Positions 1 to 25,875 of a stretch of 64,000 nucleotides of DNA are shown here, piece after piece. A program made the translations under genes and the position numbers. The stretch is from assembly GCA_963802965.1 (NCBI GenBank), contig CAWDKS010000008.1:71790-135789 (forward strand). Direction: 5' to 3'. The notes below the pieces were generated by a model that saw only the letters and a program-made list of their open reading frames with translations, was not told the DNA's origin and did not search any database. Each line of letters starts with the position of its first letter. Positions within the stretch are counted from its first letter, which is position 1. Source of the stretch: an uncultured Verrucomicrobiae bacterium (lineage in GTDB: Bacteria > Verrucomicrobiota > Verrucomicrobiia > Limisphaerales > UBA11358).

Positions 1-1
1 G

Positions 2-634
2 AAGATTCCCTGGGTGCGCATCACCGACCAGCAGGGCGTCGTCACGGTTTATCGCACGCCGAAATTCACCAATGACGTCTCCAAAATGGAAATCCGCAGG
101 ATGGACTGCATGGACTGCCACAATCGTCCTTCCCACCGCTACGTGCCGCCGGACCGCGCGGTGAATCTGGCGATGGAAGCCGGCCAGATTGACCGCACCA
201 TCCCGTGGATCAAGACCAACGCCGTCTATGTGCTCACCCGCAAATACAAGACTGACGACGAGGCGCGCGACGGCATCGCCACCCTGCTGGCGGCGAGTTA
301 TCCCGATGACCCGCGCATCCGCGGCGTGATTCCGGTGGTGCAAGGGATTTACAAAAACAATTTCTTCCCGCAGATGAAGGCCGACTGGAGCGTTTATCCC
401 GACAATGTCGGGCACATGCTCTGGCCCGGCTGTTTCCGCTGCCACGACGGCCAGCACAAGACCGGGGACGGCAAGCGGACCATCAAGGCCAACGACTGCA
501 ACGCCTGCCACACCATCCTCGCGCAGGGCAGCGGCGCGGAACTGGAACAATTGACGCCGGGGGGCCAGCCCTTCAAACATCCGGGCGGAGATTACGACCT
601 TTCCTGCTCCGATTGCCACACGGGCGGGCTGTAG
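2..634 (+). CDS. multiheme cytochrome c, C-terminal part (5' end runs off window)
   Basis: Frame is open from nt 2; four CxxCH heme motifs (CMDCH, CFRCH, CNACH, CSDCH) in listed ORF 14..634. Confidence 0.8.
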   Translation, partial: KIPWVRITDQQGVVTVYRTPKFTNDVSKMEIRRMDCMDCHNRPSHRYVPPDRAVNLAMEAGQIDRTIPWIKTNAVYVLTRKYKTDDEARDGIATLLAASYPDDPRIRGVIPVVQGIYKNNFFPQMKADWSVYPDNVGHMLWPGCFRCHDGQHKTGDGKRTIKANDCNACHTILAQGSGAELEQLTPGGQPFKHPGGDYDLSCSDCHTGGL

Positions 635-810
635 GTTGTTACTTCCCGGAAGAGACCGTCCGCTTTTTTATTACCGATGGGTGCAATCCATTGCACCTGC
701 CGCGCCCGGCCCACGCAGATATTTTGAATATAGGCAATATAGAGACACTATCTGGACAATTTATGGAAATTAGTTTTCAAAACCGTGCCCATGTGCGAGA
801 TTGAGGGGGT

Positions 811-1095
811 ATGGCAAAGGCAGGGCTTAATCCGGCATTGAAGGGACTGCGGGGGAAAGTGGGCGATCTGGTGTTCCGGCAGTTATACGGGAAGACGGTG
901 GTCAGCCGTGCCCCGGATTTTTCCCGGCGCAAATTAAGCGTGGCGCAACGGGCGCATTGCCGGCGGTTCGGGACAGCCGCGCAACAGGCCCGGCTCGCGT
1001 TGAAGGATCCCCGGCGCCGCGCCGGCTATGCCGCCAAGGCGAAGCGGCAAAACCGCCCATTGATCGCCGTGGCCATCAGCGATTGTTACCAGTAA
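811..1095 (+). CDS. hypothetical small basic protein
   Basis: 94-aa Arg/Lys-rich ORF with purine-rich GAGGGGG just upstream of ATG; no family recognised. Confidence 0.4.
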   Translation: MAKAGLNPALKGLRGKVGDLVFRQLYGKTVVSRAPDFSRRKLSVAQRAHCRRFGTAAQQARLALKDPRRRAGYAAKAKRQNRPLIAVAISDCYQ

Positions 1096-1210
1096 CCAAC
1101 CGCGGATAATACGGGGTTCACCCCGGTGTGCCGGTACAAACCTCACCCGCCGGCTAAACGATCACTGCAACTCGGATTTTAACCACGGATGAACACCGAT
1201 TAACACGGAT

Positions 1211-1858
1211 TCAAACCAGTGCCTGTTGAATCCGCCGCACGACTTTGTTCGGCCCGGCCTTTAGCCTTTGGCCTTTCTTGCCGCGCCGAAATCTAATGAA
1301 GGCGGGAGCCTTCAGCCTTGCCAAATCGCATTCCCAAATCCGAATCACGCGCCAGCCGCCCCGCCGCAAAGTGCGGTTCACAAGCCGGTCACGGGTTTTG
1401 TTGCCCGCCAATTTCTTTTTCCAGAAGGCATAATTGTTCCTCGGCTTGGTTGCGTGCCTGGGGCAGCCATGCCAGAAACAGCCGTCCACAAAGATTGCCG
1501 TGCGCGATTTGAGGAAAACAAAATCCGGTTTCACGCGAAAGGTAGGGCGCGTCACTTCCGCCGTCGCCTGGCTATGGCGGGACAGGCCGTGCGCGCCGCG
1601 TTTTGAGGTAGGGACATCGCGCTGCGATGTCCGCGACGCGTGCAGCGTCGCAACCGTTCCAGGCTTGTTCCGGCCCTGCACGGGCCGGTGACGCCGCAGC
1701 GCGGCATCCCTACCACGGATTTCGACATGTCGTCGCCAGCCTTTGATGCCGTGTCGCTTTAACAATTTTGCCAGCGCCAGTTCCGTGTCCTTGTTCCCGC
1801 GCCCGCGAATCCGTGACATGACTTCGGAACGTTTCCGTTTTGAAAAGACATCAGCCAT
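1211..1858 (-). CDS. Vsr-like very-short-patch-repair endonuclease paralog carrying a 59-aa internal insertion and a C-terminal extension
   Basis: N-terminus MADVFSKRKRSEVMSRIRG.. and core KPDFVF..AIFVDGCFWHGCPRHAT..FWKKKL..N..RD align residue-for-residue with the 139-aa Vsr at 3258..3677; extra segment lies between WRRH and KPDFVF. Confidence 0.75.
   Translation of the reverse strand: MADVFSKRKRSEVMSRIRGRGNKDTELALAKLLKRHGIKGWRRHVEIRGRDAALRRHRPVQGRNKPGTVATLHASRTSQRDVPTSKRGAHGLSRHSQATAEVTRPTFRVKPDFVFLKSRTAIFVDGCFWHGCPRHATKPRNNYAFWKKKLAGNKTRDRLVNRTLRRGGWRVIRIWECDLARLKAPAFIRFRRGKKGQRLKAGPNKVVRRIQQALV
1541..1717. repeat. repeat-derived in-frame insertion inside vsr paralog (GGTAGGG..CCCTACC hairpin-type sequences)
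   Basis: Segment absent from paralog 3258..3677; contains ggtagggacatcgcgctgcgatgtcc and gcggcatccctacc, related to ggtaggg-type hairpins at 48815-48866 and 59398-59440; boundaries approximate. Confidence 0.55.
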
Positions 1859-1963
1859 TCAGCCGGTTGAGGGTTGAGGGTTGAAGGTTGAGAGCCTCAG
1901 GCGCGACTTGCTGCGCCTCGGAAACATTGCCTCCTTTACGTCCGACGCAGAAGAGGTTACTTT

Positions 1964-2191
1964 ATGTCCGTTATGATCGTTCCACTCTCGAAAGTGCAGT
2001 TTCGTCGGGATGAAGACGGCGTGTGGATTGCCAAGTCCGCCCTGCTGCCCGGCTGCCACGCGCACGGGCGCGACCGGGGTGAAGCTGCGCTTAGATTCCA
2101 ACAGGCTGCCAAGGCACATCTGGAAGCATTGCTCGAAACCGGACGTCCCATTCCCGCCGCCTTCCGCGACAAATTCGTCCTCGCCGCCTGA
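1964..2191 (+). CDS. hicB: HicB-like antitoxin (UPF0150-type N-domain)
   Basis: DEDGVWIAKSALLPGCHAHGRDRGEAALRFQQAAKAHLEALLE matches the HicB pattern (..W.A..P.LPGC.A.G.T.EEA......A....LE). Confidence 0.65.
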   Translation: MSVMIVPLSKVQFRRDEDGVWIAKSALLPGCHAHGRDRGEAALRFQQAAKAHLEALLETGRPIPAAFRDKFVLAA

Positions 2192-2194
2192 CCT

Positions 2195-2350
2195 GTGGGC
2201 AAATATCCCTCTTGGAACTGCCGTCAGCTTGACCGTCGTCTGCGTGAGATTGGCTGCGAACTCCTTCGCACCACCGGGAGCCACCGGCGTTATCCAGTCC
2301 TACATCGACATCTATCTGGTCAAGTGGTAAAAACTTTGTCGCGTGGCTAA
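2195..2350 (+). CDS. hicA: short HicA-like toxin candidate (51 codons, GTG start; below ORF-track cutoff)
   Basis: My translation: VGKYPSWNCRQLDRRLREIGCELLRTTGSHRRYPVLHRHLSGQVVKTLSRG*; L..LG....R..GSH..Y core is HicA-like; starts 4 nt after hicB stop; shorter than typical HicA. Confidence 0.4.
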   Translation: MGKYPSWNCRQLDRRLREIGCELLRTTGSHRRYPVLHRHLSGQVVKTLSRG

Positions 2351-3236
2351 TGCAGTTTTTACAACGAAAGTAAATCCGGTCTACGATGATCTGCCGGAGA
2401 TTCGTTACCACTTTCCTTCGACATATCTTAATCAGGCCAAACAAGCAGTGGGGAATTTGATTGTATATTATGAACCACGGCGTGAAAGCTCGGATCTATC
2501 TGGCCGGGCGGGCCGCCAGTGCTATTTTGCAACTGCACGGGTCGTGAAAATCGAGCCGGACCGGGGAAGGCGCGATCATTACTATGCATACCTGACAGAT
2601 TACCTCGAATTTACAAAACCTGTCCCTTTCAAGGCAGGAAACAACTATCCTGAAGCTGGGCTGCGGAAGGCGGATGGGTCGACAAACAAAGGACGCTTTG
2701 GCCGGTCAATACGGATAATTTCGCCCCAGGAATTTCAAGCGATTTGCCGACTTGGATTTGCAGATGCGGCAAAACCTCCCGAAAAGGAGCAACCCGTTGA
2801 AGCGTTCGCGGAAGAACCGTTGGAATATGGAGGTCCTAGACAGATGCAAATTATGGAGAGACCTTTCCGGGACAGAGTGTTTACTCGTGTGATTCAAGAA
2901 GCATATGATAATACCTGTGCAATGACCGGCCTCAAACTCATCAACGGTGGAGGGCGTTGTGAGATTGAAGCTGCCCATATCAAGCCGGTGGCCGATGACG
3001 GTCCAGATTCACCGCGTAACGGTATCGCACTGTCGCGTACCATCCATTGGATGTTTGACAAACACTTCCTTTCAATTTCGGACTCAGGTAATATCTTAGT
3101 TGCCAAGAAATATGTTCCGGACCCGATTCGCCGTCTGTTAAATCAAGATGGTCAGGTTAAGTTTCCATCTTCCTCGGCATGGCAGCCGCATAAGGTCTTT
3201 TTGCATTACCATCAAAACCTTTTTAAAGGCGACTGA
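2343..3236 (+). CDS. HNH endonuclease with ~170-aa N-terminal domain (putative restriction endonuclease, possibly modification-dependent)
   Basis: C-terminal HNH motif EAAHIKPVADDGPDSPRNGIALSRTIHWMFDKHFLSI; N-terminal YHFPSTYL..VYYEPRR..YFATARV architecture recalled from COG3440-like putative restriction enzymes (from memory). Confidence 0.75.
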   Translation: MANAVFTTKVNPVYDDLPEIRYHFPSTYLNQAKQAVGNLIVYYEPRRESSDLSGRAGRQCYFATARVVKIEPDRGRRDHYYAYLTDYLEFTKPVPFKAGNNYPEAGLRKADGSTNKGRFGRSIRIISPQEFQAICRLGFADAAKPPEKEQPVEAFAEEPLEYGGPRQMQIMERPFRDRVFTRVIQEAYDNTCAMTGLKLINGGGRCEIEAAHIKPVADDGPDSPRNGIALSRTIHWMFDKHFLSISDSGNILVAKKYVPDPIRRLLNQDGQVKFPSSSAWQPHKVFLHYHQNLFKGD

Positions 3237-3257
3237 TTTGTTTTAGAAGCATTCCAT

Positions 3258-3677
3258 TCAGGCCGGCAAGTCGAGGTGGTGACAAATTCGTCGGAGCAAA
3301 CGGGCTTCATTTTTAAGAACCAGTTCATGTTGCCAAATCCTCAATATAGCCCACCCACGTTGTCGGAGCGTGCGGTTCACAATTCGGTCACGGTTCTTGT
3401 TGCGGGCGAGTTTCTTCCGCCAAAACGCTCTGTTGGTTGCTGGCTGTGTCGCGTGTCGAGGGCAACCATGCCAAAAGCAGCCATCCACAAAAATTGCAAG
3501 TTTGATTTTTGGAAAAACGAAATCGGGTTTGCCAAAGACCGATTGGTGACGCCTCCAGCCTGTAAGTTTGTGTCGTCGCAGGACGTTCAAAAGCGCAAGT
3601 TCGGTCCGTTCGTTTCCATGGCCACGCACGCGTGCCATGATGGCGGAACGTTTTGGTTTGGAGAAAACATCAGCCAT
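3258..3677 (-). CDS. vsr: very short patch repair endonuclease Vsr
   Basis: 139 aa; KPDFVFPK..AIFVDGCFWHGCPRHAT..FWRKKL.RN..RD..V...L...GW..LRIW; ATG abuts TAA of upstream exonuclease gene. Confidence 0.9.
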   Translation of the reverse strand: MADVFSKPKRSAIMARVRGHGNERTELALLNVLRRHKLTGWRRHQSVFGKPDFVFPKIKLAIFVDGCFWHGCPRHATQPATNRAFWRKKLARNKNRDRIVNRTLRQRGWAILRIWQHELVLKNEARLLRRICHHLDLPA

Positions 3678-4247
3678 TTATGACGGAAGAACCCCTGTAA
3701 AAACTGGGGTCGGAAGAGTGGTATAGTTTGGCACAAGCTGTTGCCACATTTTAACGACTGCTTCAGCGAGAAGGCCAACGTCTCCGCGAGCGTCATGTCG
3801 TCGGTACCCGGATGTACTCAGACGGAGGCGTTCCAAAACGGCATCCAGACCGTGCCGCCTAGATGATTGCCAGACCTGTTTTGAAAGATTAATCGAATCG
3901 ACATATCCGATCGAACGAGTCGGAAGTTTACTTTTCGAGCACGCTGCACGTATGAAAGGCATATCGAAACGGTGTCCGTTATGAGCAAGAAGGATATTGT
4001 TACCGACAAAATGGGAGAAATCAGCGAGCGCAAAGGATGCCGGCGGCGCATTACAAACATGTCGATCGGAGATGCCGGTGTAAGAAGTAATAAATGATGG
4101 GATTCGACAGCCTGGATTTACGAAGGTGGAGAACGCTTCAGTGTGTGAGATCGCTCCGGATTTCACGCGAACCGCTGCAATCTGAATTATGTCATTCGCG
4201 GTCGGCGAAAGTCCTGTCGTTTCAAGATCGAAGATCACCAAATCCAT
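3678..4247 (-). CDS. DnaQ-like DEDDh 3'-5' exonuclease
   Basis: ExoI FDLETTG, ExoII LLAHNGHRFDMPFI, ExoIII HDARGDV; starts 6 nt after helicase-nuclease stop. Confidence 0.85.
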   Translation of the reverse strand: MDLVIFDLETTGLSPTANDIIQIAAVRVKSGAISHTEAFSTFVNPGCRIPSFITSYTGISDRHVCNAPPASFALADFSHFVGNNILLAHNGHRFDMPFIRAACSKSKLPTRSIGYVDSINLSKQVWQSSRRHGLDAVLERLRLSTSGYRRHDARGDVGLLAEAVVKMWQQLVPNYTTLPTPVFTGVLPS

Positions 4248-4253
4248 ACACTA

Positions 4254-5336
4254 CTACGCTCCCGGCCTCGCCTTTTTGTGGGTGACCGCCTCTTTCTGAC
4301 CGCAGATTCCGACAAAATCACATCTAGGGCATCGATGTTTGCCTTCTGCGTTCGCCTTCGGCCCCACGTTGAATTTGCGGTCCCGGATTTCGGCGGCAGT
4401 CTTCGCAACACGACTTTGCGCAGCCTCAAGGTGAGATTTGTCCAACGGCACGCGAAGTTCTCGTTTCTCATCCTGCTTTGCGTCCAGGTATCGAACCAAC
4501 CCGGCTTCCGGTTCGTATTCCAATTCCTTCTTGGCGGCGAGCGCATAAATCGCCACCTGCAGCTTCATTTCCTCCTCATCCAGCTTCATGTGCTTATCGG
4601 ACTCCGGATCGCCTGACTTAAAATCAACGAGTGTCACCCGAGGAGGATCATCGCGCCGTACAATATCAATTGCGCCTGAAACTAGCGCACCCCCGTCCTT
4701 GTCCGGATACTCGACTAGCGTTTCAAATGATTTTTCTGGCTCGAATGTCAAATCCTTCAATTCTCCGGCGAAGCGTTCGACATAATCTGCAACGACTTGG
4801 ATTCCTTTTTTCCACATGTTTTTTGCCGGGTCACCAGTCGTGTAGCGCAAATAAAAAAGTCCGCGGTCGATCTGCTTTTGAATTTCCGCTTCAAGTATTT
4901 TCCGGTCGTTAGCCAACTCAGCCCAGCGCTGTGGGGCGGAATGAATCGCCCGCATCAAATTATGGATGCCGCGTCCGTAACCGAAAGCCTGGTCAATTGT
5001 CGGCGCGAAGCCCATGACTTTTCTGAGATAAAAATCGTGAGGGCAAGCCAGATAGTAACGGAGATCAGAAAACGAAGTAGCGAGCTGCACGTTTCGCATG
5101 TGTTCCTTGGGCGCGTATTTGAGTTCGCGTAACAGAGCCGCGGAATCATTTGTGACGCGACCACCGGACTCCCCAATTATTTGAGAAAGCCCTGGTATAG
5201 CTGGAGTCGTTCTGGTCTTTTTTACGCCTTGAATGAATCGCGAAACCTTGTTGCCCGAATAACTGACAAAGAGAAACCGTTCTGCGCGCGTAAGAGCAAC
5301 GTACATCAAGCGGCGCTCTCCATCGTGGTTCTCCGT
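4254..5336 (-). pseudogene. UvrD-family helicase-nuclease, C-terminal fragment (helicase motif VI plus Cas4/AddB-type PD-(D/E)XK Fe-S nuclease)
   Basis: GERRLMYVALTRAERFLFVSY (motif VI); nuclease: CPHDFY, GRGIH, AIDIV..LVDFKSG, QVAIYALA, CPRCDFVGIC (4 Cys). Confidence 0.85.
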
Positions 5337-6924
5337 TCGTTTACCCGAATCTCACCCCCCGATTGAACTTGGCGAGGCCGAAGCGGAATGGTGCAAAAAG
5401 GCCGAACTACTTACAGAAGTTGGTACTTCGGATGAAACGAAGGCGTTCGCCGTCTCCGCCGCCCGCTACTACGCGTATTTGCGCTGCCGCCGATTTCTGG
5501 ATTTTAGCACGTCACAGGGAGAGTTCATCCGCCGCCTGGAGGCCGACAAAGAAAAGCGGAAGGAATTGCAGAAATCAAATATTCATCTCGTTGTTGACGA
5601 AGTACAAGATATCAACCCGATTCAAATGCAACTCATCCGTCTTTTAACCGATGAATCAGGCAAGCTCACATCCGTCGGCGACCATCGGCAGTCAATTTAC
5701 GGCTTTCGCGGCGCCAAGGTGGAGTTGATCGCCGAACTGTGGGAAGAATTCAAAAAGGACAAGGACGCCGAAGTTGTTGATTTGCAGGAAAACTTCCGCT
5801 CCACGGGACGGGTCATTGATGTTGCGAACAAATGGGCGGAAACAATTGGAACGGTCGGGGCGATGGAAACGCTCGGGATGAAACATGGAAACAAACATCG
5901 GACGGATCACCACCCTTCGCATGTCGCGTTGATAGGTTTCGACGAACGCGTTGATGAAGCACGGTGGATTTCAGAAGCCATTCGCGAAATCGTCCCGACC
6001 GAGGCGCAAGGAGCGCTGCACGATAAGCGCGACGGTAAATATCGCGGCCTAACTCTTTCTGATGTCGCCATTTTGGTTCGTTCATCCACGGACGTTCGGA
6101 CATATATGCGAGTTCTGGAGGAAGCAGGCATCCCCTCAATTGTCCGGGCAGGCCCGGACCTTTTTTCACAGCCTGAAGTTCTGTTTTTCATCGGCGCAAT
6201 TGGCATCACTGCAGGCGTTGACGAATTTTGGGGCTCAAGCATTGGCAATAAAAGTCTACCAAAACGAATCGAAGCTGTTCTCGAATGTGCGCCCGCGCCA
6301 GAAACTGTTCTTCGCGCAGCGGCCAGACAACTGCGAAAATCCCAACTGTCAGTGAGTCGCGAGGTGGAAGATAGAACAGTTCTGGCCGCCTCGATGATTC
6401 GCGATCGAATCGGCGGTAAATCATTCCACCAAAGCCAAACCAAGATTTTGAGAACGGAAGGCCTGCGAGATTTTCTTGAACGGAAACCGGAACTGCGCCG
6501 GCTTTTTCCGCAGCAACTTTTTCATTGGTTGCTTTCGGAAGCGGAAGTGGAAAACTGGGACACGTGCGAAGGTCGCGGGCAGGCGGCAATGTTTCATCTT
6601 GGCGCTTTGAGTGGACTCATCACCGGAATCGAGACGCCCGGCTGGACAAATACGAAGTCCTACAAGTGGCAAGTCATCGGTCTTTGCCAGTATGGCGCAG
6701 AAGATGGCCGCGTGAAGGAGCAGCCGCTCATGGTGCAACCGGAGGCCGTCACCATCAGCACAATCCATGCGGTCAAGGGACTAGAGTTTCCGGCAGTGTT
6801 TCTGGCCGACGTGAAAGCATTACGATTTCCTAGCAGCATGGCCACTCGTGGAGTAAATCTTCCCCTTGGACTAAAGATTTCGAAAGAAATCAATATAGAT
6901 GGCCTTTCCGATAATGAGAAACGA
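5337..6924 (+). pseudogene. same helicase gene, central fragment (motifs II-V) in inverted orientation
   Basis: Read on the plus strand: LVVDEVQDINPIQ (II), GDHRQSIYGFRGA (III), ENFRSTGRVI (IV), TISTIHAVKGLEFPAVFLADV (V); bounded by TCGTTT 5337-5342 / AAACGA 6919-6924. Confidence 0.85.
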
Positions 6925-7457
6925 TTGTGTTCTTGAAGTTGATCGTAGGCTTGTGTGAACTGCTCAAAGGTCTCCCCCTGGCCAGCATCGGAACCGTTAT
7001 TGTGTTTCGGCAATGCGGCACGCAAAGCATTCAACGCCAGCAGCCCATTGAATCCTCGGAGTATCAACGCCGCCCGCGCGCCCTCGTCCAAAATGTCGTA
7101 GTTGTGATAATCGTCGGGCCAAAACTCCCTGATCTTGGCTAGACAGTAACCGTGGATCGTGCCGATATACATCCCACCGAGAGAAACATCTTCTCCTGCT
7201 GGAGTAACTTTACCGATCCAAGAGCGGATACGGAATTTCATTTCCTCCGCGGCACGTTCGGTGAACGTAAAGGCCACAATTTGGTCCTTTTCCACCTTCT
7301 CGACACCGACCCACCAAGCAATCCTGCGCGCCATTACTTCGGTTTTGCCAGATCCAGCGCCCGCAACCACTAATACGCGGCGTTTTGATGACTGAATAGC
7401 CAGTTTTTGATTCTTCGTCAGGTTATCATCAAGCAGTATTTCTTGAATCCTCGGCAT
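6925..7457 (-). pseudogene. same helicase gene, N-terminal fragment (motifs Q, I, Ia)
   Basis: MPRIQEILLDDNLTKNQKLAI.., VLVVAGAGSGKTEVM (I), AFTFTERAAEEM (Ia), GTIHGYC; AAGGA SD 13 nt after MTase stop. Confidence 0.85.
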
Positions 7458-7470
7458 ACAGTCCTTTCGA

Positions 7471-8490
7471 TTAACCCACGAATTTCCGAATCTGCCTAGC
7501 TTGTCTTCGGATGAACTCCGGCGGCAGCGCATTGCCTATCATTTGTGCGGTGGGAAACTTTCCGCGTGCGAGTGAGAAGAAATAATTTGGCGGAAAAGTC
7601 TGGAGTAGCGCTGCCTCGCGGAGCGTGATGGTGCGATTTTTTGTCGGATGTAAGAATCGGCCCTTTGACGGATTTACACAACCGCCCGTTATCGTCGGTG
7701 AAACGTCATCCCATGACATACGACCATAAACGTCTTTGAATCCGTCACATCTTCGGTGACAATCGAGCTGGTGCCTCGCACCCATATCAAGCCGACTGCC
7801 GCCGTTCTTTGGGATGCGCTGGATGAGTTGCTTCACTTTCTTACTCCGCGACTCCGGCAGATTGTGCAGCGGGTCGCGTCGCGAAAAACGCTTGGTCAGT
7901 TTGGCAAACGTTTCACGCACGGTTCGGACACGGCGAGCAGCAGTTCCGAAGGGGATTTCCGCGCCTTGACCCGCCAGGAGAATGAAACGGCGTCGGCGTT
8001 GTGGTACGCCATAGTGCCGGGCGTCTTTGACCGCAGCATTTACCGTGTAGCCAAGCTGCTTCAATGCAGCCTTAAATTTTGGCAAACGGGCGTTGTCCGC
8101 CAAACCTGGCACATTCTCCATCATAACTGCTTTGGGACGAAGGCCTCGAATCAGACGGAGAAAATCGAAAACCAAGTCGTTTTGCTCGTCCCGCACACGG
8201 CGTGCGCCGTTAAGTCGTCGCATAGCGCTGAACCCCTGACACGGCGGACAGCCAGCCAAGAGGTCGAGGTCTCCGCGATTGAAGCCAAGTGCCTTTAGAA
8301 TTTGGGGCGTTGTGAGTTTACGGATGTCTTGCCGCCAAAGATAAACCTCGGAATGATTTACGCTGTAGGTGTCCGCTGCCAGCGAATCAATTTCCACTGC
8401 ACCAACAACTTTAAATCCAGCGCGCTTGAGACCCAACGTCAGGCCGCCACAACCCGAAAACAAATCTATGGCTCTTGGTTTCTTCTTCAC
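7471..8490 (-). CDS. dcm: DNA (cytosine-5) methyltransferase
   Basis: Motif I DLFSGCGG, IV GCPPCQGFS, VI MENVPGL, VIII QRRRRFIL, X GNALPPEF; GTG start overlaps upstream stop (GTGA). Confidence 0.92.
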   Translation of the reverse strand: MKKKPRAIDLFSGCGGLTLGLKRAGFKVVGAVEIDSLAADTYSVNHSEVYLWRQDIRKLTTPQILKALGFNRGDLDLLAGCPPCQGFSAMRRLNGARRVRDEQNDLVFDFLRLIRGLRPKAVMMENVPGLADNARLPKFKAALKQLGYTVNAAVKDARHYGVPQRRRRFILLAGQGAEIPFGTAARRVRTVRETFAKLTKRFSRRDPLHNLPESRSKKVKQLIQRIPKNGGSRLDMGARHQLDCHRRCDGFKDVYGRMSWDDVSPTITGGCVNPSKGRFLHPTKNRTITLREAALLQTFPPNYFFSLARGKFPTAQMIGNALPPEFIRRQARQIRKFVG

Positions 8491-8714
8491 ACGTCCACTC
8501 TTTTGCAGAGTTCCGAGATGGAAATCTTGAGAGCCTTGGCAATACGGGCAACGTTTTTGATGCCGGGGTTACGTTTTCCGCATTCGATGCCGCTGATGTA
8601 GGTCTGGTCGAGGTCGGACTTTTCGGCGAGCAATTCCTGTGAAAAATCCAATTTTTCACGACGCCGACGAACGTTTCGCCCTAGAGCCATCAAAACAGGA
8701 TGTCGTTTTGGCAT
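8487..8714 (-). CDS. XRE-family HTH regulator (controller/C-protein-like)
   Basis: 75 aa; LGRNVRRRREKLDFSQELLAEKSDLDQTYISGIECGKRNPGIKNVARIAKAL; first gene of the MTase operon. Confidence 0.8.
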   Translation of the reverse strand: MPKRHPVLMALGRNVRRRREKLDFSQELLAEKSDLDQTYISGIECGKRNPGIKNVARIAKALKISISELCKRVDV

Positions 8715-8719
8715 GACTC

Positions 8720-8757
8720 ATAGTCTATAGGCGCGTCCAAAAATAATTATGGACTAT
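8720..8757 (-). promoter_or_regulatory. candidate operator (C-box-like nested inverted repeats) just upstream of the HTH gene
   Basis: ATAGTC (8720-8725)/GACTAT (8752-8757) and GTCCA (8735-8739)/TGGAC (8750-8754) in an AT-rich leader. Confidence 0.3.
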
Positions 8758-8801
8758 CAGTAATAATCGGCGGGCAAGCAAAGAGGCTTATGGAGTATCA
8801 G

Positions 8802-9035
8802 TCAGGTTGTTTCTGCACGCGGTTTTTTGCCCAAAGCATCGAGCCGTTGATACCGTTTTTCTTCCAGTTCCTTTTCCTCGCGGTTTAAATCCGCCATCCA
8901 TTCGGCGAACGGCTTGTCGCCGGGCTCGCGTTTGAACACGCCGCGAAACGAATGAATGAGCTTCCGCATTTCTTCCGTCTTCATCTGATTCCGACGCGAC
9001 GAGTCCGGCGACAGTTTCTTCTTCCGGCGAGGCAT
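8802..9035 (-). CDS. hypothetical protein (charged, helical)
   Basis: ORF 8802..9050, likely start MPRRKKK at 9035; no family recognised. Confidence 0.35.
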   Translation of the reverse strand: MPRRKKKLSPDSSRRNQMKTEEMRKLIHSFRGVFKREPGDKPFAEWMADLNREEKELEEKRYQRLDALGKKPRAETT

Positions 9036-9316
9036 GGCGCGATATTGCACCCGTCAAGAACGGGAGACCAGAGGATTTTGGACATGCCATTTTGCGCGCC
9101 CGGCGTCTGTGGACTATCGGCTACAATCTGAGCGAAGCGAAGACCAGCCTTCGCTCAGAGGCTTCGGCACGGCAGGTGGAAGATCGAGGATGGCGGATGG
9201 CCGCGCAGCAGCACGGCCCTACCACGCACAGAAGAAAATTTGCGGTCATCCATCCTTCGTTTAGAAACTATGGAGGACAGGTCGGCGTCATCTGCGGGGG
9301 AATGGCGGTCGAGGCT

Positions 9317-9469
9317 TCAGGGCTTTTCGGCAACGACTTTTCCGTTACGCCACAAGTAAATCGGCGTGCCGTGGAGGCGGGCGGTCTTGCGCGCCACCAA
9401 AGCGGCGCGGCGCAACGCGCGTCCGGCGCCGGTCAGAGAACTTTTGTATTTAACGCTTCTCGTCTTCAT
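9317..9469 (-). CDS. hypothetical small protein
   Basis: MKTRSVKYKSSLTGAGRALRRAALVARKTARLHGTPIYLWRNGKVVAEKP; internal ATG of ORF 9317..9574; no family recognised. Confidence 0.35.
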   Translation of the reverse strand: MKTRSVKYKSSLTGAGRALRRAALVARKTARLHGTPIYLWRNGKVVAEKP

Positions 9470-9592
9470 CTTTGGACTGCAATAGTCGCGGACTGTCCCC
9501 GGATGTGATTCTGCCCCCGGTGACCGGAGTTTCAAGGCGGAAACATCGAACATCGAACGCTCAACATCCAACATCCAATGAAGGCGGCCGAC

Positions 9593-11494
9593 TCAAACCG
9601 TTCCCGCGGGCTTCGCAACGCGGTAGCTGCGCCACAGTTTGACCGGCAGCAGGCCGAGGAGGATGAGGATGACCTGGCTGCCGATGAAGAGGCTCAACCA
9701 TTGGAATGCCGCGTCGGTGAATCCGTAGCTGTGCAGGCCGATGCCGAGCATGTTCACGCCGAACCAGGAGAAGCTGGTGACAATGTTGCCGAACACGGCC
9801 AGGTTCATCAGGCCGCGCTCGCGCACGAGGCCGCCCCAGCGCGCGTGCAGGATGGTCGCGTTCCACAACACGATGAGCAGCGCGCCGTTTTCCTTCGGGT
9901 CCCAGCCCCAGAACCGGCCCCACGACTGGTCGGCCCAGATGCCGCCAAGCACCGTGCCGACAAAGCTGAACAGCGTCGCGAAACAAACAATGCCATAAAC
10001 CATCCGCGCCAGTGATTTGGCGGTTTCCGCCGAAAGCGTGGTGGTGAACACGCCGCGCAGGATGTAAATGATGGCCAGAAACCCCGCCACAAAGGTCGAG
10101 GCGTAGCCGAGCGTGACGGTCACGACGTGGGTGGCCAGCCAGAAATTGGTGTCGAGCACGGCGCGCATCATTTCCATGGTGTCGCCGCCGAGCGCCAGGT
10201 TGTGCGCGATGATCAGTGTGACGAAACCGACAAACGCCGCGACGACGCAGCCGATGCCGTCGCGGTAAATTTTCTCGAGCACCATTCCAAGGATGACCGC
10301 CGCCCAGCCGATGAAAATGGCCGAGGAATAAAGGTTGGTCACCGGCGGCCGGCCTTCGAGATACATCCGGAACACGAGGCCGAACGTGTGAATGAGCCAC
10401 GCGAGAAAGATGAGATAAAACGCCGAACGCCGGAGCCAGTCCGAGGCATTGAATGCCGGCGCTTTGCGGGTGGCGGTGGCGCCACCGCCACCGAACCACG
10501 ACAGGAATGCGAGCACCAGGGCGAGCACGTAGATGACCATGGCCTTGTAGAACGGCTCCATCGTGCTGAAGAAACATTCCTCGTTCGCCTTGCGCACCTG
10601 CGGCGCGAAACGCTCGGCCAGCCACGCGTGGTATTGACCCACCAGGCGGTTGAAATCGTCCGGCAGCCCGGAACGATAGGCGGTCACCATTTCGGCATAA
10701 AATGTTGTCGCCGGGTTGAATTCGCCGGTGCGCGCGGTCTGCATGAGGTTGGTGCCGATGTTCTGCCAGTCGTCGCGCGGCAGGGCGGGGTCCATGGGCG
10801 GAATGGTCAGCGGCAGGGCGAAGCTGGCGACGGTGTTGTAATTGCCCATGAAACCCAGCAGGGTGTTGAAGGCGTCCTGGTCGAATTTTTTGCCGGCGTC
10901 ACGGGCGTCCACGGCGGCAATGCCCGGCGCGATGCTCTTCTGGTAGGCATCCAGTTCCGCCGCAAAATCGTCCGAAGCCGGCGGTTTGAGGCTGACTTCG
11001 AGCCGCTGATACAGGTCCATGGCCTCGTAGAGCTTCATCAACTGCGACTCGAAGACGGTGCGTTTGGAAGGATCAACCGGCCCGATGCGGCTGACCTGTT
11101 TTTCAATCTCGTCCATCTGCGGACGGATCTGGTTGAAGGAATAATATTTCTGGTTGTCGGGCAGCTTGAGCAGCTCGGTGACCTCGTTGTTGTCAATGCG
11201 GAAGACTTTCCGGTCGTCGGACGCCTCGGGTTTCATCATCGCTTCGAGCAGCCAGTCCATGGCGGACATCTCCCTGCTTTTGCCATTTTCCTCGGTGAGG
11301 ACGGTTTGTCTGGCGCGGATTTGGAGCAGGGAATTGCGGGCGACGGAATCGAACGGCTGGAAGCGGCCGTTCATGAGGACGGGCAGTTTGCCAAAAGCGC
11401 GGGTGTTGAAGCCGGTTTCCGGCGGCTGACGCAGGCCGGACAGCGCCCAGCCCGCCATCACCACAACCAGAATGAGGGGAATCCACTTTTTCAT
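9593..11494 (-). CDS. ccsA: cytochrome c biogenesis protein CcsA/ResC (System II) with long N-terminal periplasmic extension
   Basis: Trp-rich heme-handling motif WADQSWGRFWGWDPKENGALLIVLW; multiple TM segments; start MKKWIPLILVVV. Confidence 0.88.
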   Translation of the reverse strand: MKKWIPLILVVVMAGWALSGLRQPPETGFNTRAFGKLPVLMNGRFQPFDSVARNSLLQIRARQTVLTEENGKSREMSAMDWLLEAMMKPEASDDRKVFRIDNNEVTELLKLPDNQKYYSFNQIRPQMDEIEKQVSRIGPVDPSKRTVFESQLMKLYEAMDLYQRLEVSLKPPASDDFAAELDAYQKSIAPGIAAVDARDAGKKFDQDAFNTLLGFMGNYNTVASFALPLTIPPMDPALPRDDWQNIGTNLMQTARTGEFNPATTFYAEMVTAYRSGLPDDFNRLVGQYHAWLAERFAPQVRKANEECFFSTMEPFYKAMVIYVLALVLAFLSWFGGGGATATRKAPAFNASDWLRRSAFYLIFLAWLIHTFGLVFRMYLEGRPPVTNLYSSAIFIGWAAVILGMVLEKIYRDGIGCVVAAFVGFVTLIIAHNLALGGDTMEMMRAVLDTNFWLATHVVTVTLGYASTFVAGFLAIIYILRGVFTTTLSAETAKSLARMVYGIVCFATLFSFVGTVLGGIWADQSWGRFWGWDPKENGALLIVLWNATILHARWGGLVRERGLMNLAVFGNIVTSFSWFGVNMLGIGLHSYGFTDAAFQWLSLFIGSQVILILLGLLPVKLWRSYRVAKPAGTV

Positions 11495-25798: not shown

Positions 25799-25875
25799 TG
25801 GCGGGAGCGGCGGGGCTCGAACCCGTAACCTCTGCCGTGACAGGGCAGCGCTCTAACCAATTGAGCTACGCCCCC
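25799..25875 (-). tRNA. tRNA-Asp (anticodon GTC), CCA encoded
   Basis: Hand-folded: GGGGGCG-TA-GCTC..GAGC-G-CTGCC-CTGTCAC-GGCAG-..-TTCGAGC-..-CGCTCCC-G-CCA; one G.U in the acceptor stem. Confidence 0.9.

Follow-up and report, generated by a model that had tools for sequence, protein, structure and literature searches.

A predicted helicase-nuclease in the restriction endonuclease position of a Dcm/Vsr operon from an uncultured Verrucomicrobiae bacterium, and the inversion that interrupts it

Introduction

The window analyzed here is a 64,000-nt stretch of contig CAWDKS010000008.1 from an uncultured Verrucomicrobiae bacterium. Five open reading frames (ORFs) run in the same direction on its minus strand between positions 3258 and 8714, and they are predicted to code, in this order, for a controller protein, a Dcm-type methyltransferase, a helicase-nuclease, a DEDDh exonuclease and a Vsr endonuclease. 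The locus raises the question of what a large helicase-nuclease does between a C5-methylcytosine (m5C) methylase and Vsr, in the slot that would belong to the restriction endonuclease (REase) of an m5C restriction-modification (R-M) operon. The answer that we favor, with moderate confidence and on sequence comparisons, is that the helicase-nuclease is the restriction component of an ATP-dependent, m5C R-M-like defense cassette. The core of this cassette would be a Dcm-family m5C methyltransferase and a single polypeptide in which a superfamily 1 (SF1), UvrD-type helicase is fused with a predicted Cas4/RecB-like iron-sulfur (Fe-S) nuclease. The catalytic motifs are kept in every component and the cassette is found in defense islands, both of which support this reading.

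Organization of the operon

Domains were assigned by Pfam and NCBIfam profile searches, and defense models by PADLOC. The controller (C) protein (75 aa; 8487-8714, minus strand) matched HTH_3 in Pfam (E=2.6e-15) and the PADLOC model Control_protein (E=3.4e-19). Its ATG is abutted by the palindrome GACTCATAGTC (8715-8725, not assigned to either strand), which has the form GACT-N3-AGTC; this form has a single match in the window against 0.30 expected by chance. The form is of the C-box type, and the palindrome is a candidate operator. The Dcm-type C5-cytosine DNA methyltransferase (339 aa; 7471-8490, minus strand) is intact, covering positions 2-323 of the 324 in PF00145 (E=2.6e-60) and scoring 165.6 bits with TIGR00675, and the exact protein was also found on a public contig of 234,662 nt. 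The helicase-nuclease gene (4254-7457, minus strand overall) is broken and matched the UvrD-helicase, UvrD_C and PDDEXK_1/Cas4 profiles in pieces. It is followed by the genes for a DEDDh (DnaQ/RNase T-like) 3'-5' exonuclease (189 aa; 3678-4247, minus strand; PF00929, RNase_T, E=1.7e-30; PADLOC DEDDh, E=1.7e-33) and for a canonical Vsr T:G mismatch endonuclease (139 aa; 3258-3677, minus strand; TIGR00632, 115.1 bits against a cutoff of 97.85). The latter aligned with E. coli Vsr (1cw0, residues 2-119) and includes the PDF...GCFWH motif.

The genes are tightly coupled. The controller stop codon and the methylase GTG overlap as GTGA; the methylase TAA is followed by TCGAAAGGACTGT, 13 nt with AAGGA inside, and then by the helicase ATG at 7457; 6 nt separate the helicase TAG from the exonuclease ATG at 4247; and the exonuclease TAA directly abuts the Vsr ATG (3678/3677). 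An earlier, sequence-only reading of this DNA had described these five ORFs and four junctions, and all of them could be read directly. It had also stated that the only broken component is the one predicted to attack DNA, which agrees with our finding that methylase, exonuclease and Vsr are whole and the helicase-nuclease gene is inverted in part. No REase family was matched within the operon in the Pfam and PADLOC scans, and the sequence-specific, ATP-independent REase that accompanies the methylase in type II R-M systems was not found at the operon. The earlier statement that a conventional restriction endonuclease is lacking therefore stands for the operon itself, although it overlooked an intact PUA-HNH nuclease gene immediately adjacent to it, which is described in the last section.

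An ordinary REase in the same operon frame

The strongest support for the idea of an REase slot came from two loci, L102 (4314-7999) and L103 (327-4012), in which the gene order is controller, Dcm, MvaI/BcnI REase, DEDDh exonuclease and Vsr. The REase of these loci, 435 aa long and extended at its N-terminus by about 175 aa, belongs to the MvaI/BcnI family (PF15515, E=8e-43). The controller, exonuclease and Vsr share 57%, 66% and 59% identity with their counterparts in the window, whereas the Dcm (382 aa) shares 30%. The genes of the frame are thus much closer to each other than the methylases are, and the methylase and the nuclease genes have therefore been exchanged together as one block. 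The order of the two operons is the same; the difference is that a compact, ATP-independent, sequence-specific REase is present in one and a 1,067-aa helicase-nuclease, predicted to be ATP-dependent, with a Dcm of another lineage in the other. By these alignments the helicase-nuclease and its Dcm occupy the place of an ordinary methylase-REase pair, as the sequence-only reading had proposed when it described an m5C R-M frame with a helicase-nuclease in the REase position.

In L102, as in the window, the exonuclease gene ends directly at the start codon of Vsr. In its occurrence the exonuclease follows the frame of the operon and Vsr, not the helicase; it belongs to the frame, and probably to Vsr, more than to the helicase in particular. 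More distant homologues of the exonuclease (58% identity) are stand-alone genes in unrelated contexts. In the literature searched we found neither a conventional type II operon that includes a DEDDh exonuclease nor a description of a DEDDh-Vsr pair recurring in two different R-M frames.

This bond between exonuclease and Vsr is also what would be expected if the operon were a kit for very-short-patch repair. In such a kit, which is the main rival to a restriction role and which we consider unlikely, the helicase would load at the nick made by Vsr, the Cas4-like nuclease would excise the T strand in the 5'-3' direction, the DEDDh exonuclease, where present, would help to excise the T-containing strand, and the cassette would amount to an orphan methylase with its own damage control. 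Mismatch repair and very-short-patch repair offer precedents: UvrD is known to load at nicks, and there is a functional interaction of E. coli Vsr with MutL. However, DEDDh enzymes work in the 3'-5' direction and would leave in place a T lying 3' of the Vsr nick, and in the homologous frame of L102 and L103 the position of the helicase is held by a true REase.

Genes that accompany the helicase-nuclease

The neighborhoods of helicase homologues (51-88% identity) were scored at 96 loci by tblastn and ORF clustering. The loci with 2.5 kb or more of sequence on each side made up the complete set, 34 after removal of redundancy, and partners were counted within 3.5 kb. Dcm was present in all 34 and Vsr in 31. 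The three incomplete loci all keep Dcm and have no Vsr, and none of the 34 has helicase and Vsr but no Dcm. Dcm and helicase are therefore the core pair, and across phyla Dcm and the helicase-nuclease form a near-obligate gene pair. The prevailing order is Dcm-helicase-Vsr on one strand, with frequent overlaps or abutments in the loci that were checked. A housekeeping repair helicase, found mostly without methylase or Vsr neighbors, had been named beforehand as the observation that would speak against an R-M role, and these counts show the opposite.

The same census bears on the repair kit from both sides. In most loci a canonical Vsr lies directly downstream of the helicase, as the kit would have it, but the three loci in which Dcm and helicase do without Vsr, together with the lack of any in which helicase and Vsr do without Dcm, are difficult to accommodate in a pathway that starts at a Vsr nick. 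Vsr itself may do more than repair: a 2026 paper on Caulobacter (PMC12907096) shows that DNA can be damaged by a Vsr-like protein if it does not carry the cognate cytosine methylation.

The two remaining genes of the window operon are minority accessories. The controller was found in 6 of the 96 loci. Of 75 non-redundant loci, 7 have the window-type exonuclease, whose gene is placed between those of helicase and Vsr or shortly before the helicase gene. The operon had been presented as a five-gene combination; all five genes are indeed present here, but the unit that recurs is made of three, Dcm-helicase-Vsr. A second, distant RNase_T family (273 aa) was observed directly after Vsr in L005, L014, L020 and L072, all of them without the window-type exonuclease. 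An exonuclease beside Vsr appears to have been gained more than once.

Features and conservation of the helicase-nuclease

The protein consists of an N-terminal SF1 UvrD-type helicase and a C-terminal Cas4-like nuclease (pfam12705) in one polypeptide. PF00580, PF13361 and PF12705 were found on the ORF after repair in silico (see below) and on all of the 120 best homologues. Walker A, DEVQD and motif VI are invariant in 20 homologues, as are C805, C1043, C1046, C1052, D931, D945, K947, Q967 and Y971, all of which are present in the window ORF. The four Cys are the predicted ligands of the Fe-S cluster of a Cas4-like nuclease. No named PADLOC system was matched by the proteins of the operon: the nuclease domain matched Cas4 models only, and the GajB matches of the helicase (1.6e-51) reflect generic UvrD similarity. 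Sequence searches and Foldseek returned UvrD, AddA, RecB and AdnB as analogues. The AlphaFold model of the helicase, built on a 20-sequence alignment, was poor (predicted local distance difference test, pLDDT, 64; predicted template modeling score, pTM, 0.40), and its Foldseek matches confirmed the AddA/UvrD/RecB architecture only.

As its nearest analogues in structure and sequence are AddA, RecB, AdnB and UvrD, the protein might instead be a generic RecBCD/AddAB-like processor of ends or nicks made by Vsr, by the PUA-HNH nuclease or by a type III Res subunit, amplifying restriction or feeding recombination. Its alignments with AddA, RecB and AdnB do extend across helicase and C-terminal nuclease alike, and the helicase is joined in several arrangements by homologues of the HNH gene (L011/L012/L018, L023/L024 and the contig of P0001, an intact homologue of the helicase-nuclease), which could supply the ends. 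On the other hand, the scores are far below the family cutoffs (186.1 bits against 707.65 for AddA and 110.4 against 696.05 for RecB), and the annotated neighborhoods include no AddB, RecC/RecD or AdnA partner gene. The helicase-nuclease is linked to a methylase and horizontally mobile, not housekeeping. Most cassettes, such as those of Bradyrhizobium, NC10 and Cellulomonas, contain no nuclease besides Vsr that could provide a substrate, three loci do not have even Vsr, and the strict link to one Dcm family would be unexpected for a general processor. We regard this explanation as quite improbable.

The helicases of Verrucomicrobiota, Bradyrhizobium, NC10, Cellulomonas, Sedimentisphaerales and a Methanomethyliaceae archaeon share 65-68% identity. 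Identity at this level across distant phyla points to horizontal transfer, and the operon can be taken as horizontally acquired. Transfer across phyla, a controller and a defense-island context would all be unexpected for a repair accessory and argue against the repair kit. The median pairwise identity is higher for the helicase (66%) than for Dcm (56%) and Vsr (45%). A specificity pair of Dcm and Vsr separate from the helicase found no support, since the Mantel correlation between Dcm and Vsr was r=0.14, compared with 0.35 and 0.30 for their correlations with the helicase. A hypervariable target-recognition region in Dcm was ruled out: residues 241-300, which comprise this region, are the best conserved part of the protein, with column identities of 0.82-0.87 among 51 cassette methylases. 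This conservation suggests, at the level of the alignment, a single recognition sequence common to all methylases of the cassette family; a region that is conserved and not diversifying is also what a repair kit would show.

Proposed mechanism

In the mechanism that we propose, the controller would bind the palindrome at its own start codon and time the expression of the operon. Dcm would methylate one conserved target in host DNA, marking it as self, and the helicase-nuclease would be the ATP-dependent effector that unwinds and degrades DNA without the mark. The helicase has no evident sequence-reading domain and is better conserved than the methylase; its specificity therefore probably comes from the methylase. 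More speculatively, it would be taken from Dcm in the way that Res of type III systems takes its own from Mod. The DEDDh exonuclease of those cassettes that have one would remove 3'-ended strands, and Vsr would repair the T:G mismatches that arise by deamination of 5-methylcytosine (5mC), limiting the mutational cost of this base. In the source genome the gene of this proposed effector is inactivated by a 1,582-nt inversion, with methylase, exonuclease and Vsr left intact.

Several observations weigh against a restriction role. No restriction experiment on any member of the family was found in the literature searched, and a UvrD-type helicase beside Vsr fits nick-directed excision repair equally well in mechanistic terms. 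Pfam and PADLOC profiles detected no reader domain in the helicase with which it could sense the methylation state of DNA. The co-variation of identity between Dcm and helicase is modest (the Mantel r of 0.35 given above), and the conservation of the Dcm target-recognition region differs from the behavior of many R-M families, which diversify their specificity. A plasmid- or phage-borne cassette is not evident either: a protein search (E<=1e-30) of 72,556 plasmids gave no match, and the scan of viral contigs gave only 2 loci. Finally, inactivation of the helicase is not recurrent. Apart from the window, disrupted helicase genes were found only in L089 (6001-9128, frameshift near residue 251) and L078 (3262-7260, insertion of about 0.85 kb), and these disruptions could be real inactivations or assembly errors.

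Should the restriction role be correct, the cassette would represent a new R-M architecture, in which an m5C methylase is partnered by an SF1 helicase that shares its polypeptide with a Cas4-like nuclease. Thousands of proteins annotated as "ATP-dependent DNA helicase" would gain a function, as would many Dcm/Vsr pairs that seem to be orphans. With three genes the family is compact; it is also highly conserved and occurs in hosts that can be cultivated, Bradyrhizobium among them, which makes the hypothesis directly testable. The L102 operon, with a conventional REase in the same frame, is a natural control.

Comparison with known systems

The UvrD-Cas4 fusion was described by Hudaiberdiev et al. 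(2017, BMC Evol Biol; PMC5704561) as the largest branch of pfam12705, located either next to type III Mod/Res genes or next to Dcm with Vsr (their Figure 6), and a defense role was predicted. The protein studied here has every feature of that family: the helicase plus pfam12705 architecture, four Cys with the D...D/ExK...QxxxY motif, and Dcm (and Vsr) as neighbors. The most common neighbors of the family are type III Mod and Res (PMC5704561). There is no 5mC deamination to repair in that setting, which is a further point against the repair kit. The same study treats the fusion as ancillary and gives it no name, mechanism, census or experiment. A later name or experiment for the Dcm/UvrD-Cas4 neighborhood was not found in the literature searched, nor is there a PADLOC model for it. 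The sequence-only reading had not recognized the combination as a named system; this was right with respect to PADLOC, but UvrD-Cas4 with Dcm and Vsr had already been described. The neighborhood is thus already published, and what the present locus adds is the controller, the exonuclease, the equivalence with the REase slot and a natural inactivating inversion, that is, an off-allele of a predicted R-M-like system.

Type III R-M systems offer a parallel in organization. Both consist of one methylase and a large motor with a C-terminal PD-(D/E)XK nuclease, and in both the motor is without its own specificity domain and is the better conserved of the two proteins. The parts are different: the methylase is a Dcm C5-cytosine enzyme (PF00145) here and an N6-adenine or N4-cytosine enzyme in Mod, the motor is an SF1 UvrD helicase instead of a member of superfamily 2 (SF2), the nuclease is Cas4-like with a predicted Fe-S cluster, and a Vsr gene is attached. 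A bolder proposal, which we put forward tentatively and consider possible rather than probable, is that Dcm and UvrD-Cas4 form an uncharacterized class of ATP-dependent R-M systems in which the methylase is the specificity subunit, following a type III-like logic with unrelated parts. This class would be widespread in bacterial phyla and some archaea and would be toggled off naturally by rearrangements, with alleles coexisting.

Other systems share single traits with the cassette. In the ATP-dependent type II systems CglI and NgoAVII, an m5C methylase is combined with an ATP-hydrolyzing, helicase-like protein needed for cleavage, but the endonuclease is a separate PLD-family protein and the ATPase belongs to SF2, instead of the single SF1 helicase-PD-(D/E)XK fusion found here. 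In Gabija, the UvrD-like helicase GajB acts with GajA, an OLD-family ATPase with a TOPRIM domain. The likeness is limited to the presence of a UvrD-like helicase in a defense system, and neither the window island nor the related loci include a GajA-like gene. Hhe, reportedly described by Gao et al. in 2020 as a helicase and a Vsr-like nuclease in one protein, had been suggested as a possible match. This suggestion did not hold: the Vsr studied here is a separate, canonical gene that matched only the PADLOC "Vsr" model, and no Hhe model was among the PADLOC matches of the nuclease domain, of Vsr, or among the best 25 of the 59 helicase matches, all of which were GajB or RTasHel.

The inversion in the helicase gene

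The reading direction of the helicase gene is minus for residues 1-180, then plus, then minus again. The N-terminal fragment (6916-7457, minus strand; residues 1-180) includes Walker A (GAGSGKT) and UvrD domain 1A and matched positions 1-116 of PF00580 (E=1.3e-26). The middle segment (5334-6915, plus strand) includes motif II (DEVQD), domains 1B/2A/2B and most of UvrD_C, matching positions 183-270 of PF00580 and UvrD_C. The C-terminal fragment (4254-5333, minus strand) carries motif VI and the Cas4/RecB-like PD-(D/E)XK nuclease with its four conserved Cys (PDDEXK_1, E=3.8e-27; Cas_Cas4, E=1.6e-5). The sequence-only reading had already seen that the gene is split by an inversion; alignment with five intact homologues confirmed this and refined the breakpoints to 5334-6915, an inverted segment of 1,582 nt. 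Re-inversion in silico restored an uninterrupted ORF of 1,067 aa, whose product aligned without gaps to the intact protein P0001 with 94.1% identity. The segment is bounded by a 5-nt inverted microhomology with its left arm, TTCTC, at 5329-5333 and its right arm, GAGAA, at 6916-6920. A 6-nt microhomology, TCGTTT/AAACGA (5337-6924), was rejected as the site of the breakpoints: it also gave an open 1,067-aa ORF, but four codons between the junctions were shifted, and the homologue alignment corrected it.

Two short-read contigs from run ERR11718638, L100 and L101, match the window with 100% identity; L100 stops at 5333 and L101 at 6916, the exact last bases common to the inverted and uninverted arrangements. 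Contig ends located exactly at both breakpoints are expected of a de Bruijn graph that branches where both arrangements are present, and we therefore infer that the inversion is polymorphic. Intact and inverted helicase alleles probably coexist in the natural population. The far ends of the contigs lie at 8607, inside the controller gene (L101), and at 2177, inside a 141-aa ORF (L100), and may mark further strain variation in the sample. The uninverted allele was not sighted directly, as exact look-ups of both repaired versions in a collection of 15 billion proteins gave no match. The three broken ORFs and six guessed peptides of the middle segment had no exact match in the same collection.

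The break might instead be an assembly artifact in an organism with an intact, ordinary operon. In favor of this, the inverted allele is on only one long contig, and broken fragments and repaired protein are alike absent from the protein collection. This explanation is nevertheless very improbable in our judgment. Two independent contigs stop exactly at the breakpoints, a branch at both points is the expectation for two coexisting arrangements, and a clean, in-frame, microhomology-bounded inversion is typical of real illegitimate recombination. Neither the island nor the ten flanking ORFs that were scanned showed a gene for a recombinase or invertase, and programmed phase variation is therefore not proposed; with arms as short as these, illegitimate recombination is more likely than a programmed switch.

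The sequence-only reading had interpreted the break as the silencing of the toxic half of the system with the methylase and Vsr retained. This is plausible but unproven, and the inversion appears polymorphic, not fixed. As an apparently polymorphic rearrangement in one soil population, it is a natural loss-of-function allele that could reveal the fitness cost of the effector. Two exact, colinear matches of 13 and 11 nt (5480-5492 and 5521-5531 against 7519-7531 and 7508-7518), split by a 28-nt insert, were also observed. They join the 3' end of the methylase gene with the start of the inverted helicase segment, and the copies differ in reading frame. None of 52 homologous loci has the match.

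Genomic context

In about ten loci (L034, L035, L041, L042, L055, L056, L066, L067, L079 and L084) the BREX genes for PglZ and then BrxL, a Lon-like protease, end directly upstream of Dcm on the same strand. Nine other loci have a Z1-domain protein and a conserved 160-aa partner in that position, and further neighbors include MORC-like HATPase (seven loci), NOV_C, KaiC-like and ORC/Cdc6-kinase proteins. The cassette may repeatedly have been added on to larger defense systems. The three-gene cassette of Bradyrhizobium sits among FAD-oxidase-type genes, beside a BrnA antitoxin gene. In the window the operon is part of an island of about 8 kb with a GC content of 0.48-0.55, and the flanks, with a GC content of 0.58-0.62, code for multiheme cytochromes and cytochrome c assembly and maturation proteins. 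No integrase, tRNA or repeat boundary was identified at the island (1-9600), and the only tRNA gene of the window is that of tRNA-Asp (25799-25875).

The adjacent PUA-HNH nuclease and a second Vsr-like gene

An intact gene for a predicted PUA-superfamily reader fused to an HNH nuclease (297 aa; 2343-3236, plus strand; PF13391, HNH_2, E=1.9e-11) converges on the operon, its stop codon lying 21 nt from that of Vsr. The protein is 90% identical to P0121 and its C-terminus aligned with VcaM4I (6yex). The AlphaFold2 model had a pLDDT of 73.5, and its top Foldseek matches were VcaM4I, TagI, the EVE protein PH1033, the N-domain of McrB and YTH. A PUA-superfamily reader combined with HNH is the architecture of modification-dependent type IV enzymes (PMC6765204). 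On the strength of the fold matches, the protein is probably a separate, modification-dependent (type IV-like) enzyme and not the classical partner REase of the methylase.

Beyond it lie a 141-aa ORF with no assigned family (1859-2284, minus strand) and, preceded by this ORF, a second Vsr-like gene (215 aa; 1211-1858, minus strand) that matched Vsr in Pfam and NCBIfam. Compared with canonical Vsr, its product has about 45-60 aa inserted internally. L097 and L099 have Vsr genes that diverge from HNH homologues and whose products share 48% identity with it. In these loci the HNH homologues adjoin the long Vsr without the helicase, with or without Dcm (L097, 5072-6894; L099, 5346-8228), and the second Vsr-like gene is likely a partner module of the PUA-HNH gene. 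A modification-dependent nuclease paired with Vsr is an odd combination of which no description was found in the literature searched. L099 has, in addition, a convergent Dcm gene of 442 aa. Among the cassettes with the helicase, the PUA-HNH gene co-travels with the sub-clade that carries the controller and the exonuclease.

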